42,036 nt of DNA, from positions 1 through 42,036 of the forward strand of contig JACRLF010000008.1 in assembly GCA_016235365.1 (NCBI GenBank), read 5' to 3'. The position numbers and the translations under genes were made by a program. Below are positions 1-7,874 of the stretch, piece after piece. Position 1 is the first letter of the stretch. Every line of letters starts with the position of its first letter. The notes beneath the pieces were generated by a model. The model did not search any database and was not told the origin of the DNA. It was given only the letters and a program-made list of their open reading frames with translations. This stretch comes from Deltaproteobacteria bacterium (GTDB lineage Bacteria > Desulfobacterota > GWC2-55-46).

Positions 1-5
1 ACTAT

Positions 6-288
6 CAGGTTGTTGAAAAAGTCCATCTACTGCGTTGTCATCGTCGCTCGTCAGTGCGGCGTATGGACAAAATACGCCTCATTCCTCGCTCCTCGACGCC
101 TCCAACGCCAAGTGGCGTGGGTCGGGAGCTTTTTGAACATGCATAGCGAGCGTCCAGCCCGCAGCTTGGCTAGCGGGGCTAAGCGAGCGAATCGGATATA
201 GATACTTCCTTACATGTTGAAGTTCCCCGCGGCAAGCCGCGGGGAGCTTCAACAGCCTGAACGGACGCGAGGGTTTTTCAACAACCTG
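6..288. mobile_element. MITE family B, containing a nested family A copy at 138-252
   Basis: Perfect 15-bp TIR CAGGTTGTTGAAAAA (6-20) / TTTTTCAACAACCTG (274-288). The internal sequence resembles the reverse complement of 25694-25814. Confidence 0.75.
138..252 (+). mobile_element. Family A ~115-bp hairpin element (IS200/IS605-like non-autonomous), copy 1
   Basis: Follows TGAA (134-137), starts CATGCATAGCGAGCG, ends CCCCGCGGCAAGCCGCGGGGAGCTTCAA. Confidence 0.85.
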
Positions 289-411
289 CTAAATTCTCAA
301 CCGCGTACCTCGCAACCTGCTCAAACGCTATGGGGGCGGCCTGGAGATTGCTTCGTCGCGTGCGCTTCTCGCAATGGCGACTAAAGACTTTTCCGCAGCC
401 TGCTAAAGAGC

Positions 412-446
412 CGCCGCATGGCAGACCAGAGCTCTGCCATGCGGCG
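412..446. terminator. 14-bp perfect hairpin downstream of the selenoprotein gene, possible terminator
   Basis: CGCCGCATGGCAGA-ccagagc-TCTGCCATGCGGCG; no strong U-tract. Confidence 0.45.
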
Positions 447-468
447 CCACGTTCTATCCGTATTGTTT

Positions 469-487
469 GGCCGGCAACCTGCCGGCC
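469..487 (-). promoter_or_regulatory. SECIS-like hairpin for the C-terminal UGA
   Basis: Minus strand GGCCGGCA-GGT-TGCCGGCC begins 13 nt after the UGA at 503-501; the apical loop contains G. Confidence 0.65.
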
Positions 488-491
488 TCGT

Positions 492-716
492 CTAAACCCC
501 TCAGGTGCCCCCGAAGCCCGCCACCACGGTCCCGCCCTCAACTATCACCGGGACCTGCCTCATGCCGCCGCTTGCCTTGAGCATCCTGTCCATGTTCTCA
601 GGGGACGCCTTCACGTTGACGTATTCGACCAGGTACCCTTTTTTCGCGTATTCCTCACGGGCCGCGTTAGTGTACGGTCAGGTGTCCTTACCATAGATTA
701 TCACTTTTTCAGGCAT
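492..716 (-). CDS. Glutaredoxin-like selenoprotein with two predicted Sec residues (UXX-star type), 74 aa
   Basis: Manual translation: MPEKVIIYGKDT-U-PYTNAAREEYAKKGYLVEYVNVKASPENMDRMLKASGGMRQVPVIVEGGTVVAGFGGT-U-GV*. AGGAGG RBS at 722-727, UGA at 680-678 and 503-501, Grx-type VP motif. Confidence 0.85.
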
Positions 717-903
717 GGATCCCTCCTTTTTTGAAAACGACGTTATGCGCCCTTTGACTTCGCACTGAGGCGTCTCGATAGATTATATCAAAAATACCTC
801 TCCTATCAACGTATGCGCCGCCCCCCGCTGGCCCCATCGTACCATTCAGGGTCCGGCCTTTACAAGTCTTATCTTGAAGCCCCCCCGCTCGCCGATCCCT
901 CCG

Positions 904-1563
904 TCACCTGCTCCTCAAGACCCCACACCTCCGGCACAGGCCGTTCAGCCTGCATCCGCTGCACAGGGGAGAGACCGGCCTGCAGACGTTTTGCCCGAAG
1001 GCCACGAGCAGGTCGTTCAATATTATCCAGTACCTCTTCCGGAGCTTCTTCCTCAGCGCGAACTCGGTCTCATCCGGGGTCTTTGTATCTACGAAGCCCC
1101 AGCGGTTCACTATCCTGTGGACATGGGTATCCACGCATATGCCGGGCTTGCCGTACCCCATCGTCACAACGAGGTTGGCGGTCTTCCTCCCCACGCCCTT
1201 TAGCCTGAGAAGCCCCTCCATGGTGTCGGGGACGTGGCCGCCGTGGTCCCTCTCTATCTCCCTCGATATGTCGAGTATCACCCTTGATTTGACCCTGTAA
1301 AATCCGGCGGGGTAGATCGCCCGCTCTATCTCCTTTGCGTCAAGCCCCGATATGCCAGCCGGGGTATCGGCCAGGCGAAAGAGCCTCGTGGATGCCTCCC
1401 TCGTCACATCATCCTTTGTCCTCAGGCTCACGATGCAGGAGACGAGGACCTTGAACGGGTCTTTCCCCTGTCCGGCGGCGACCTCCGTGACATAGGGGGT
1501 CTTGAACCTGCCGTACTCCTGCTTGAGTATCCTTATCGCCTTCGGTATGTCTGAAGTCCGCAT
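904..1563 (-). CDS. nth: Endonuclease III (HhH-GPD DNA glycosylase)
   Basis: HhH motif LKGVGRKTANLV, VDTHVHRI, C-terminal C-x6-C-x2-C-x5-C 4Fe-4S motif. Confidence 0.95.
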   Translation of the reverse strand: MRTSDIPKAIRILKQEYGRFKTPYVTEVAAGQGKDPFKVLVSCIVSLRTKDDVTREASTRLFRLADTPAGISGLDAKEIERAIYPAGFYRVKSRVILDISREIERDHGGHVPDTMEGLLRLKGVGRKTANLVVTMGYGKPGICVDTHVHRIVNRWGFVDTKTPDETEFALRKKLRKRYWIILNDLLVAFGQNVCRPVSPLCSGCRLNGLCRRCGVLRSR

Positions 1564-4218: not shown

Positions 4219-4794
4219 ATGTTGACATCCATGAGACCTATCGAGCACTTCAAGGAGATGGTCGGCGCGGCCATCGAGCACCAGAGGATAAAGACCAACG
4301 AGAGCGCCGAGTTCTACCTGTCGAACCTGCTCTCGGACTTCCTCCAGCGCGAGAGGTTGAGCGACGAGCCCCTTGCCATCACCTATATAAAGGCGCTGGG
4401 CGCGGCCAGGGAGATGCAGATACATCTTTTAAAGCAACTGGGCGACATCTCTCTTTTCACCTCCGGTTTCTTCTCGGACAGCCTTAAAAGAAAGATAGTG
4501 GACATAGACTACTACATATTGATGGGCGAGGCCTCTTACGGCTATCTCGCCTCCATCCATAAGCAGAGGTCCGGGCCTAAGGATATCTCCGTGCTCTACT
4601 CGGAGCTCGCCGCAAAGTTCAAACTATTCGTGGACGTGCTCGCCGAGGTGAGCGAGCGGAGCAGGCTGACGTCCTCAAGGGACATCCTTAGGGTCTATGA
4701 GAGGTGGCTCCGGACAAAGAGCAGGCAGGCGGAAAAGATATTGAGGGACCTCGGCATAGAGCCCGTGGCGGTCTCCACGAGTCCGCTGCACTGA
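4219..4794 (+). CDS. Hypothetical protein, divergent from groES
   Basis: AAGGAGG RBS, host-like codon usage, segment LGDISLFTSGFF..DIDYYILMG; no function assigned. Confidence 0.85.
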   Translation: MLTSMRPIEHFKEMVGAAIEHQRIKTNESAEFYLSNLLSDFLQRERLSDEPLAITYIKALGAAREMQIHLLKQLGDISLFTSGFFSDSLKRKIVDIDYYILMGEASYGYLASIHKQRSGPKDISVLYSELAAKFKLFVDVLAEVSERSRLTSSRDILRVYERWLRTKSRQAEKILRDLGIEPVAVSTSPLH

Positions 4795-4795
4795 A

Positions 4796-4910
4796 CATGC
4801 ATGGCGAGCGCGAGGCCCGCAATTTGCTGCGGGGTCAAGCGAGCGAATAGAAATAGATACTTCCTTAGATGTCGAAGATTCCCCGCGGCTTAAGCCGCGG
4901 GGAGCTTCAA
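4796..4910 (+). mobile_element. Family A element, copy 3
   Basis: Sits right after the TGA-A formed by the stop codon of 4219-4794; ends GGGGAGCTTCAA. Confidence 0.85.
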
Positions 4911-4937
4911 CCCTCAATCGCCATTTATTTTATAATT

Positions 4938-4982
4938 ACAGGAATCCCGGCCGGAGTGAATCCGGCCGGGATTCCTGTTTTG
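4938..4982 (+). terminator. Intrinsic terminator
   Basis: 18-bp perfect stem ACAGGAATCCCGGCCGGA-gtgaa-TCCGGCCGGGATTCCTGT followed by TTTT. Confidence 0.75.
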
Positions 4983-5117
4983 GGGGTGTTGACTCAACAC
5001 CCCGCCCCAGGACGGATGGTTGCAGGGGAAAAGCCTTCTGGAAATCAAGGCCCTCCTGGGTTATAATTTATTGTTAAATCTCTTTCAACTTAAGAAGCAC
5101 TGCGGGCGCTGACACAT

Positions 5118-7874
5118 ATGGCGAAAAAAAAGATTGGCAGGGCCGAGGTCCTGCCGTTTGACATGCCGGCGGCAACCGATAAGGACGAGCTCATCGTAGA
5201 GGGCCTCCGGCAGAACAACCTGAAGAACCTGAGCCTGAGGATCCCCCACGACAGGATCACGACCATCGTGGGCTTGAGCGGCTCCGGGAAGTCCTCCCTC
5301 GCCTTCGACACGCTCTTTGCCGAGGGGAGGTGGAGGTTCATCGAATCCCTCTCAACCTACACGCGCCTCTTCCTTGAAAGGATGGACAGGCCCGACCTCG
5401 ACTCCATCCGCAACATACGCCCCGCCATAGCCGTGGAGCAGAAAAACCCGGTGCGCACGAGCCGCTCCACCGTAGGCACGACGACCGAGATAAACGACTA
5501 CATGCGCCTGCTCTTCGCCCGCATCGGGGAGGCGCACTGCCCCGTGTGCGGCTCCGTCGCGGCCCCATCCACCCCCGAAGGCGTTGCCGGGGCCCTCCTC
5601 GGCGCGCACGGCGGGGCCGCCGCGCTCATCGGGTTCAAGCTCCCGGTCTCCGGAAGGTCCTCCGGTGAGATAGCCGGGGAACTCCTTGAAAAAGGCTTCA
5701 CGCGGGTGCGGATAGGGTCCAGGGTCCATGACCTGGGCCTTGAAGCCCTCCCGGAGGCGATTGCGGGCGCGGTGGACGTGGTAGCCGACAGGCTCGTATT
5801 AAAGGGCTCTGAAAGGGGCAGGCTCGTTGAATCGCTTGAGGCGGCCTTTGCCATGGGAGGGGGGAGCGCGTGGGCCGCGCTCCCTGACAAGGTCGAGTTT
5901 TTTTCAAGCCTGCCCGTGTGCGCGGGGTGCGGGACCAGGGTGGAGAGGCCCACGCCCATTTCCCTCTCGTTCAACCACCCTGTGGGCGCGTGCCCGGAAT
6001 GCAAGGGCTTCGGCAACGTGCTCAAGTACGACGAAGACAAGGTGGTCCCGGACAAGGGGCTCACGCTGAAGGAAGGGGCCATAGAGCCGTGGACAAAGCC
6101 CGCGTACGGGTGGTGGCAGGACGAGCTTGAAAGGTGCGCCCATGAGATGGGAGTAGACCTCGACAAGCCGTTCTCCAGGCTCTCGAACAGGGAAAAAAAG
6201 CTCGTATTCGAGGGGACCCCGGAGTTCGAGGGCATAGACGGGTTCTTCGCTTACCTTGAGGGCAAAAAGTACAAGCTCCACGTCAAGGTATTCAGCTCAA
6301 GGTACAAGAAACAGGTCGTATGCAGGGCCTGCAAGGGCGCAAGGCTCAAGAAGGCCGCCCTCGGGATCACTGTAAACGGGCTGAACATAGCGCAGGCCTG
6401 CAAGCTTACCATAGGGGAGGCGATTGACTTCTTCGATGGGTTGAGGCTCTCCCCTTTCGAGCGGGAGGTCTCAAAAGAGATATTGAAGCAAATAATGCTA
6501 AAGCTCGGGTTCCTCAGCCAGACCGGGCTGCGGTACCTGACGCTCGACCGGCTTACAAAGACCTTATCCGGCGGAGAGGCCCAGAGGGTTGCGATAGCCA
6601 CGCAGCTCGCCTCGTCGCTCTGCGGGGTGCTCTACATACTCGACGAGCCCTCGATAGGGCTCCACCCCGTGGATATCGACATGCTCGCCGAGCAGATAAG
6701 AAGGCTCGCCTCGGCCGGCAATACCGTGGTGACGGTCGAGCACGACGCCTCGATGATCAAGGCGTCCGACCACATCATAGAACTCGGCCCAGGCGCGGGG
6801 GAGCAGGGCGGAAGGCTGGTGTACTCCGGCCCCATAGACGACTTCATGGAGAACGCCTCTACCCTGACCGCCGACTACCTGCGCGGGCGCCTGCATATCC
6901 ACGTGCCGAGATGGAGGAGGAAGGGGTCCGGCAGGTTCTTGACGCTTAAGGGGGCCTCGGGCAACAACCTCAAGGACGTGGAGTTCAAGCTGCCGCTCCG
7001 GGCCATGACCTGCGTGACCGGGGTATCGGGCTCTGGCAAGTCCACCCTCGTGGTGGACACCCTCTACAACATCCTCGCGGAGCGCTTAGGGCAGAGGTTT
7101 GAAACGCCGCTTGAGTACCGCTCCATAGAGGGGCTTGACGGCATCGAAGGGGTACAGCTCGTTGACCAGGGCCCGATAGGCAGGACCCCCCGCAGCAACC
7201 CGCTGACATACATCGGCGGGTTCGACGCGATACGGGCGGCCTTCGCCGGCACGAGATCAGCGAAGGCAAAGGGGCTCGCCCCCGGGTGCTTCTCGTTCAA
7301 CGTGACTGGGGGCAGGTGCGAGGCCTGCAAGGGCGAAGGGGTGGAAAAGCTCGATATGTACTTCCTCCCGGACGTCTACATAAAATGCGCGGAGTGCGGG
7401 GGCAGGAGATATAAAAAAGATGTGCTCGGGGTGAAGTACAGGGGAAAAAGCATATTCGACTGCCTTGAGATGACCTTCGATGAGGCAGCCCCGCTCTTCC
7501 CGTCGGAGGCGGACCTGCAGAGGAGGTTCTCGGTCATAAGGGCCGTCGGGCTCGGGTACCTGAAGCTCGGGCAATCCGCCCTGACGCTCTCCGGAGGAGA
7601 GGCGCAGCGGCTCAAGATAGTCAGGGAACTCATCGACGAGGGGGCGACGAACCGGCTCTACATGCTCGATGAGCCAACGACGGGGCTGCACATGGACGAC
7701 GTCAAAAAGCTCCTCTCGGTGCTCGGAAGGCTCGTTGACGCGGGCAATACCGTGCTCTTGATAGAGCACAACCTCGACTGCGTAAAGACGGCCGACCATG
7801 TTATCGACCTCGGCCCCGGAGGCGGAGACGCGGGGGGCTCAATCGTCGCGTCCGGGACCCCCCATCGGCCGTAG
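5118..7874 (+). CDS. uvrA: Excinuclease ABC subunit A (UvrA-like); extreme C-terminus apparently truncated
   Basis: Two Walker A motifs (GLSGSGKS, GVSGSGKS), two LSGGEAQR signatures, Zn-finger CxxC pairs; ends abruptly GTPHRP*. Confidence 0.93.
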   Translation: MAKKKIGRAEVLPFDMPAATDKDELIVEGLRQNNLKNLSLRIPHDRITTIVGLSGSGKSSLAFDTLFAEGRWRFIESLSTYTRLFLERMDRPDLDSIRNIRPAIAVEQKNPVRTSRSTVGTTTEINDYMRLLFARIGEAHCPVCGSVAAPSTPEGVAGALLGAHGGAAALIGFKLPVSGRSSGEIAGELLEKGFTRVRIGSRVHDLGLEALPEAIAGAVDVVADRLVLKGSERGRLVESLEAAFAMGGGSAWAALPDKVEFFSSLPVCAGCGTRVERPTPISLSFNHPVGACPECKGFGNVLKYDEDKVVPDKGLTLKEGAIEPWTKPAYGWWQDELERCAHEMGVDLDKPFSRLSNREKKLVFEGTPEFEGIDGFFAYLEGKKYKLHVKVFSSRYKKQVVCRACKGARLKKAALGITVNGLNIAQACKLTIGEAIDFFDGLRLSPFEREVSKEILKQIMLKLGFLSQTGLRYLTLDRLTKTLSGGEAQRVAIATQLASSLCGVLYILDEPSIGLHPVDIDMLAEQIRRLASAGNTVVTVEHDASMIKASDHIIELGPGAGEQGGRLVYSGPIDDFMENASTLTADYLRGRLHIHVPRWRRKGSGRFLTLKGASGNNLKDVEFKLPLRAMTCVTGVSGSGKSTLVVDTLYNILAERLGQRFETPLEYRSIEGLDGIEGVQLVDQGPIGRTPRSNPLTYIGGFDAIRAAFAGTRSAKAKGLAPGCFSFNVTGGRCEACKGEGVEKLDMYFLPDVYIKCAECGGRRYKKDVLGVKYRGKSIFDCLEMTFDEAAPLFPSEADLQRRFSVIRAVGLGYLKLGQSALTLSGGEAQRLKIVRELIDEGATNRLYMLDEPTTGLHMDDVKKLLSVLGRLVDAGNTVLLIEHNLDCVKTADHVIDLGPGGGDAGGSIVASGTPHRP

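Follow-up and report, generated by a model that had tools for sequence, protein, structure and literature searches.

Two in-frame TGA codons interrupt a short reading frame near one end of the stretch of DNA analyzed here, a 42,036-nucleotide contig (the window) from a genome assigned to a Deltaproteobacteria bacterium. The locus raises three questions: is the frame a gene, are both codons read as selenocysteine (Sec, U), and what would so small a protein do with two such residues? The initial annotation had located the gene at 492-716 and had noticed both UGAs; this placement holds, to be completed by the strand, which had been left unstated and is the minus strand. With TGA read as U, the frame runs for 74 codons from ATG (716-714) to TAG (494-492) and translates as MPEKVIIYGKDTUPYTNAAREEYAKKGYLVEYVNVKASPENMDRMLKASGGMRQVPVIVEGGTVVAGFGGTUGV, followed by the stop, the sequence of a 74-residue UXX-star family 1 selenoprotein. 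UGA-1 (codon 13, 678-680, minus strand) lies in a U-P-Y-T motif at the glutaredoxin active-site position, and UGA-2 (codon 72, 501-503, minus strand) specifies the third residue from the C terminus in the ending G-G-T-U-G-V-stop; both lie in frame. Under the standard code, the sole product in the list of open reading frames is a 37-residue fragment between the two TGAs (501-614), which is why the gene is hidden from the ORF track, as had been claimed.

The signals expected of an expressed gene precede the frame. The strong Shine-Dalgarno sequence and ATG described earlier can be read directly, AGGAGG lying at 727-722 on the minus strand, five bases upstream of the start codon. Further upstream, at 782-809 on the same strand, a candidate sigma-70-like promoter identified by consensus match combines TTGATA, a 16-nt spacer, and a TG-extended TATAAT (11 of 12 hexamer matches); the search returned this one site, as against a mean of 0.1 in 50 shuffles. 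The gene is probably monocistronic. Contigs from four DNA runs of one study, two of them possibly of the source sample, keep both TGAs unchanged. A second strain is represented by a 117-nt contig (476-592) that differs at window positions 506, 510, 528, 540, and 562, all inside the gene; three of these differences are synonymous and the other two change Thr71 to Ala and Met52 to Thr, and neither a TGA nor the hairpin discussed below is altered over the covered part.

Reading UGA as Sec calls for dedicated machinery, and the search for selA, selB, selC, and selD that had been proposed found selA, selB, selD, and tRNA-Sec all in the source genome, a 1.99-Mb assembly of 144 contigs that is 88.5% complete. 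The matches score 555 bits for selA, 297 bits for selB, 373 bits for selD (with one in-frame TGA), and 67.8 bits for tRNA-Sec, to which ARAGORN assigns the anticodon TCA. As a side observation, selD adjoins selB (contig C37 of the source genome, G000, 4406-5326 and 5455-7389; loci L009, L002, and L008), and its in-frame TGA makes selD itself a selenoprotein gene, as it is in five relatives. TGA nonetheless serves as an ordinary stop in this genome, because it closes 11 of the 23 frames of at least 300 codons in the window.

By profile comparison, the gene is an ordinary member of the already catalogued UXX-star family 1. The initial annotation had described a glutaredoxin-like protein resembling the UXX-star proteins, and both halves of that description are borne out: the protein scores 117.4 bits against NF041114, "UXX-star selenoprotein family 1" (cut-off 72), with residues 5-74 covering positions 1-70 of the 70-position profile, and 39.9 bits against the domain-level Pfam glutaredoxin model PF00462 (cut-off 22.9). 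A six-frame search of the genome with NF041114 recovers the locus at 103.1 bits with two TGAs in the match, and the umbrella model NF041212 gives 93.4 bits (cut-off 66). Scores of 56.1, 58.2, and 55.2 bits against NF041211, NF047338, and NF045501 (cut-offs 100, 97, and 325) make it a nonmember of those families. It likewise falls short of the equivalog glutaredoxin models (TIGR02181, 40.4 bits against 90; TIGR02180, 22.9 against 87.25) and of the NrdH models (TIGR02194, 31.4 bits against 85.75; NF007657, 32.2 against 131). The U/C-x-x-T motif is present as U13-P-Y-T16 at the glutaredoxin active-site position, in place of the classical C-P-Y-C dithiol motif, and in our alignment A3, with U written as C, the columns C13, P14, and T16 are invariant. 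The ending, U72-G-V-TAG, is the one that defines the UXX-star proteins, a Sec followed by exactly two residues and a stop.

Comparison of sequence profiles with solved structures aligns the chain with the glutaredoxin fold up to a definite point. A profile search of PDB chains gave best matches at E values of 4e-8 to 2e-7; the alignment to E. coli Grx3 (3grx/1fov) covers strands 1-4 and helices 1-2 and ends at position 69 of 74, with Gly-67, which is invariant, matched to the second of the two Gly residues that precede helix 3. The C-terminal helix 3 that follows the GG motif appears to be missing, the protein stopping five residues past the aligned region, and the Gly-rich tail F-G-G-T-U-G-V therefore appears to take its place. 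The protein may accordingly be described as a predicted glutaredoxin fold cut short just past strand 4, with a Gly-rich tail at its end. The family as such is not new: passages of a 2026 review list it as "Distant Grx-like protein 1" with the motif UxxT and two Sec residues (PMC13188914), and on the existence of UXX-star family 1 the window adds nothing. The passages found in Zhang & Gladyshev 2008 hold no description of the second Sec.

What the homologs add is the pattern of variation at the two Sec columns. A scan of one genome per species yielded 16 loci, 15 with the U-X-X-stop ending and one an ordinary C-P-Y-C glutaredoxin; matches over the cut-off occur in 47 of 61 related genomes, 48 in all, of which 35 contain two TGAs, 12 contain one, and one contains none. 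From these we assembled 40 distinct genes, leaving out the C-P-Y-C glutaredoxin without the tail (L036), the variant of genome G035 (L051), and seven duplicates. Codon 72 is TGA in all 40 and is always followed by two codons and a stop, which is TGA in 18 genes, TAA in 16, and TAG in 6. At codon 13, 30 genes have TGA and 10 have TGC or TGT. The invariant predicted Sec is thus the C-terminal Sec-72 and not the residue at the classical redox position 13, where Sec alternates with Cys. Farther afield, 15 of 301 genomes in a Planctomycetota sample exceed the umbrella cut-off, with C...U as well as U...U forms, and one planctomycete homolog (L085, G117:C128) has Cys at both positions, C-P-F-T ... 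Y-C-G-V-stop, with the architecture exactly kept. The G035 variant (G035:C40) has Cys at position 13 and a Cys-rich tail, G-W-C-V-E-C-G-S-S-D. Neither Trp nor any residue other than Sec or Cys occupies codon 13 or codon 72 in the homologs examined, which is the outcome that the proposed homolog check had asked about; together with the end-to-end match to the 70-position model, it upholds the earlier argument that UGAs at these redox positions go beyond chance.

The distribution of the gene was compared with that of the Sec system. Family and selA occur together in 41 of the 61 related genomes, the family alone in 6, selA alone in 5, and neither in 9, a table that carries no statistical weight because the genomes are kin. 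All six genomes with the family alone have selB over the cut-off; five of them, with TGA-bearing copies, have selB and a selD with an in-frame TGA, and the sixth is G035. We had considered the all-Cys variant of G035 as a mark of Sec-system loss and rejected this idea, since G035 has selB. None of the four genomes tested among those with neither family nor selA has selB over the cut-off. In the lineages searched, absence of the Sec system goes with complete absence of the gene, no all-Cys copy being retained. Two distant genomes with TGA-bearing copies, G061 and G063, returned no selB at E<=1e-60, a negative that may reflect incomplete assemblies.

If UGA-2 is decoded, a SECIS element has to be sought beyond it, where only two codons and the stop remain. 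A hairpin at 487-469 on the minus strand, identified by folding and covariation, has an 8-bp stem, GGCCGGCA/UGCCGGCC, and the loop GGU; after UGA-2 come the last two codons, TAG, and four more bases before the stem begins, so that stem and loop start 13 and 21 nt, respectively, after UGA-2. The single-sequence fold has an energy of -16.8 kcal/mol (z -2.71), which 2 of 200 shuffles equal or better. In the alignment of the 40 genes, pairing holds in 95.2% of cells and double changes occur in all eight pairs; none of 500 shuffles reaches the observed covariation, and a slid partner strand pairs in 15-41%. RNAalifold, unaided, recovers seven of the pairs, each with compensatory changes. The distance from UGA-2 is held at 10-17 nt for the stem and 18-25 nt for the loop. 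Similarity to the nearest relative (94% protein identity) persists across the hairpin and is lost a few bases farther on. An Rfam scan of window positions 1-1200 at E<=10 returned no SECIS family, its sole return being a chance snoRNA match at 14.3 bits. We regard the hairpin as most likely a SelB-type SECIS, no part of which falls within the coding region. Its spacing from the UGA is that of the fdhF SECIS, and the last two codons and the stop therefore fit within the spacer.

These observations bear on how the two codons are read. We consider it highly probable, from the comparative evidence, that 716-492 is an intact gene in which both UGAs are read as Sec by the SelA/SelB/SelD/tRNA-Sec system of the genome. 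That the TGAs are nonsense mutations or sequencing errors in a pseudogene, or that TGA has been reassigned to Trp or Gly, has nothing in its favor beyond the bare in-frame TGAs themselves, and we give it almost no credence: the same two TGAs recur in dozens of genomes and in the contigs of the four runs, the aligned residues are Cys and never Trp or Gly, TGA closes long frames in the window and is the final stop of 18 of the 40 family genes themselves, and the genome has a complete Sec system. A more specific objection is that UGA-1 alone is recoded and UGA-2 is a true stop that would release a 71-residue protein, the hairpin then being a terminator or an mRNA-stabilizing stem. Such a role would suit its position, 3' of a gene that seems to be monocistronic, and review passages place textbook bacterial SECIS elements inside coding regions. 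Yet in all 40 genes the TGA is followed by exactly two sense codons and then a stop, variation is concentrated at third codon positions, and one homolog has a Cys codon for this TGA and ends C-G-V-stop, a pattern that speaks for translation past UGA-2. Nor does the hairpin look like a terminator: no terminator-like site was found at the gene, and a run of at least four T follows the stem in only 5 of 40 genes, whereas the loop GGU(C) is conserved and matches the apex of the fdhF SECIS, and the stem keeps its distance from the TGA. A SECIS engineered after the stop codon also works in E. coli for thioredoxin reductase (Arner et al. 1999, per the passages of PMC11431864). Termination at UGA-2 is, in our estimate, very improbable. 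We posit instead that UGA-2 would be served by a SelB-type hairpin entirely 3' of the stop codon and UGA-1 by a weaker, intragenic signal.

The signal proposed for UGA-1 is harder to delineate. A candidate SECIS-1, CGCG / CC-GUGA-GG / CGCG, starts 11 nt after UGA-1 (645-666, minus strand) in the single-sequence fold; it is the minimum-energy structure, with z scores of -0.03 and -0.81 that are no better than shuffles. Its six pairs are formed in 155 of 180 cells in the Sec forms versus 36 of 60 in the Cys forms, and CGT encodes the Arg in its loop in 28 of 30 Sec forms versus 3 of 10 Cys forms, contrasts that are drawn from related genomes, so that Fisher p-values overstate the evidence. Pair 18-39 flips between C-G (14) and G-C (10) through third codon positions. 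RNAalifold on all 40 sequences predicts no pairs after UGA-1; on the 30 Sec forms it returns a different, invariant five-pair structure at -0.97 kcal/mol. Synonymous sites after UGA-1 are frozen in the Sec forms only, and some constraint at the nucleotide level that is tied to the UGA is evident in the alignment.

Just beyond the gene, the contig ends in a repeat that replaces the downstream synteny of the nearest relative. One copy of a dispersed noncoding repeat occupies window positions 1-293; the element measures about 290 nt, is bounded by terminal inverted repeats (6-20 and 274-288), and contains a palindrome. At least 76 matches occur in the genome, with 40 of 464 first-look candidates scored; several align along their whole length at 93-96% identity, and in many shorter copies 3-139 is joined to 242-291. 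In its sequence organization the repeat looks like a MITE. The contigs of runs X3 and X4 diverge from the window at position 464, five bases past the hairpin, and the letters that follow resemble the terminal inverted repeat, a sign that strains may differ in repeat insertion immediately 3' of the UXX-star gene.

The surrounding genes offer few clues to function. In the clade, the order is groES-groEL, an endonuclease III-like nth (904-1563 in the window), the UXX-star gene, a 215-aa protein, ndk, and a protoglobin/PsiE fusion; of 23 loci, 17 have ndk, 15 each have nth and the protoglobin fusion, and 12 have the 215-aa protein. The contig ends before the gene for the 215-aa protein, which the window accordingly lacks. 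In relatives, the protein directly downstream of the UXX-star gene has about 215-235 residues and no Pfam or NCBIfam match (L030:1783-2430, L022:1713-2420), and the fusion of protoglobin and PsiE domains that follows ndk has 295 residues (L049:66-953 and relatives). Over the loci examined, neighbors also include ribonucleotide reductase, HD phosphohydrolase, Memo-like, TPR, radical SAM, and glycosyltransferase genes. No neighbor is conserved across phyla, and no partner can be named because distant lineages have unrelated genes beside the UXX-star gene. A class II-type ribonucleotide reductase (barrel plus TSCPD) is convergent to the gene in one planctomycete subclade (L032/L087, L084, L090). 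We considered a link to deoxynucleotide metabolism because ndk, this reductase (L032), and an HD/dGTPase-like gene (L035) adjoin in three lineages; the idea is reduced to a weak lead, as the reductase occurs in 3 of 30 planctomycete loci, close relatives that include L032.

How, then, could the two residues act? Three features of the comparison lead us to judge a couple between tail and active site the most likely chemistry: residue 13 is Sec or Cys, Thr-16 replaces the usual second Cys, and Sec-72 is invariant. We posit that Sec-72, on its flexible tail, would be the exposed reactive residue and that its partner would be residue 13, at the original active site of the glutaredoxin fold, the couple being a diselenide or a selenenylsulfide between positions 72 and 13; in mode this would resemble the C-terminal Cys-Sec center of thioredoxin reductase, with Thr-16 standing in place of the second Cys. 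We put this redox couple forward tentatively, at somewhat less than even confidence. Judging from the known glutaredoxin fold and the sequence alignment, the tail would start next to the active site, and Sec-72 may be able to reach residue 13. With a little more reserve still, we suggest that Sec-72 is essential and that the protein is a minimal single-domain counterpart of the thioredoxin reductase center, with intramolecular Se-Se or S-Se cycling and a natural post-stop SECIS. The same features admit another function, in which the two selenolates would, as soft ligands, hold a metal or metalloid (Hg, As, Cu, or Se itself) and the protein would be a chaperone or sequestering agent with no redox couple at all. 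Passages of the 2026 review raise metal ligands, or contacts for unknown substrates, as possible roles of the UXX-star Sec residues (PMC13188914); the replacement of the second redox Cys by Thr, the missing helix 3, canonically the glutathione-binding one, and the lack of a reductase or peroxidase partner conserved nearby would all fit. On the other hand, no metal-resistance or transport gene lies beside the UXX-star gene in the loci examined, and nearly all Sec-using members of the order have the family (the 47 of 61 genomes above), as would be expected of a housekeeping role. We hold metal binding to be the main rival, though a fairly improbable one, and retain the Sec-72/residue-13 couple as our working proposal.

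The practical consequences are clearer. Standard gene callers yield the 37-residue fragment, and the window needs a Sec-aware gene call. The invariant C-terminal Sec of the family and its probable post-stop SECIS merit experimental attention, as does the frequent spacing of two UGAs 6 nt apart. In 18 of the 40 genes, UGA (Sec) is followed 6 nt on by UGA (stop); if the proposed decoding is true, only the distance to the hairpin would distinguish them. UXX-star family 1 would thus be a convenient natural system for the SelB distance rule, because the probable SECIS-2 is out of frame and a UGA stop often stands between the Sec codon and the hairpin.

The locus may be set beside several known systems. 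Its closest counterpart is UXX-star family 1 itself (NF041114), with which it shares the UxxT motif, the Sec three residues from the end, and a length of about 74 residues; no difference was found that would set the window protein apart. UXX-star families 2 and 3 and the HUGP/GUXX-star fusion (NF041211, NF047338, and NF045501) have the fold and the U-X-X-stop ending in common with it, but the window protein lies under their cut-offs. With classical glutaredoxins and NrdH, strands 1-4, helices 1-2, the active-site position, and the V-P (cis-Pro) motif align, whereas C-P-Y-C is replaced by U-P-Y-T and the chain stops at the point where helix 3 would start.

The hairpin, in turn, invites comparison with the SECIS of E. 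coli fdhF, in which a GGUC loop is closed by GCA/UGC and starts 18 nt after the UGA, at the near edge of the range in the 40 family genes; the exact apical 10-mer recurs in 12 of the 40 family hairpins. The window hairpin differs in its loop (GGU), which is one base shorter, in its unrelated lower stem, and in its position beyond the reading frame. Mammalian thioredoxin reductase is the nearest analogy for the proposed chemistry. In its Gly-Cys-Sec-Gly center, the Sec sits on a flexible, Gly-rich C-terminal tail, as it would here, and when the enzyme is expressed in E. coli, a 3' untranslated SECIS lies within the SelB distance window, as the probable SECIS does here. The two proteins are not homologous, one being a flavoenzyme and the other a small glutaredoxin fold, and the partner residue is adjacent to Sec in thioredoxin reductase, whereas the proposed partner lies 59 positions away in the window protein. 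The post-stop SECIS of thioredoxin reductase in E. coli was engineered; the arrangement in the window would be its natural bacterial counterpart.
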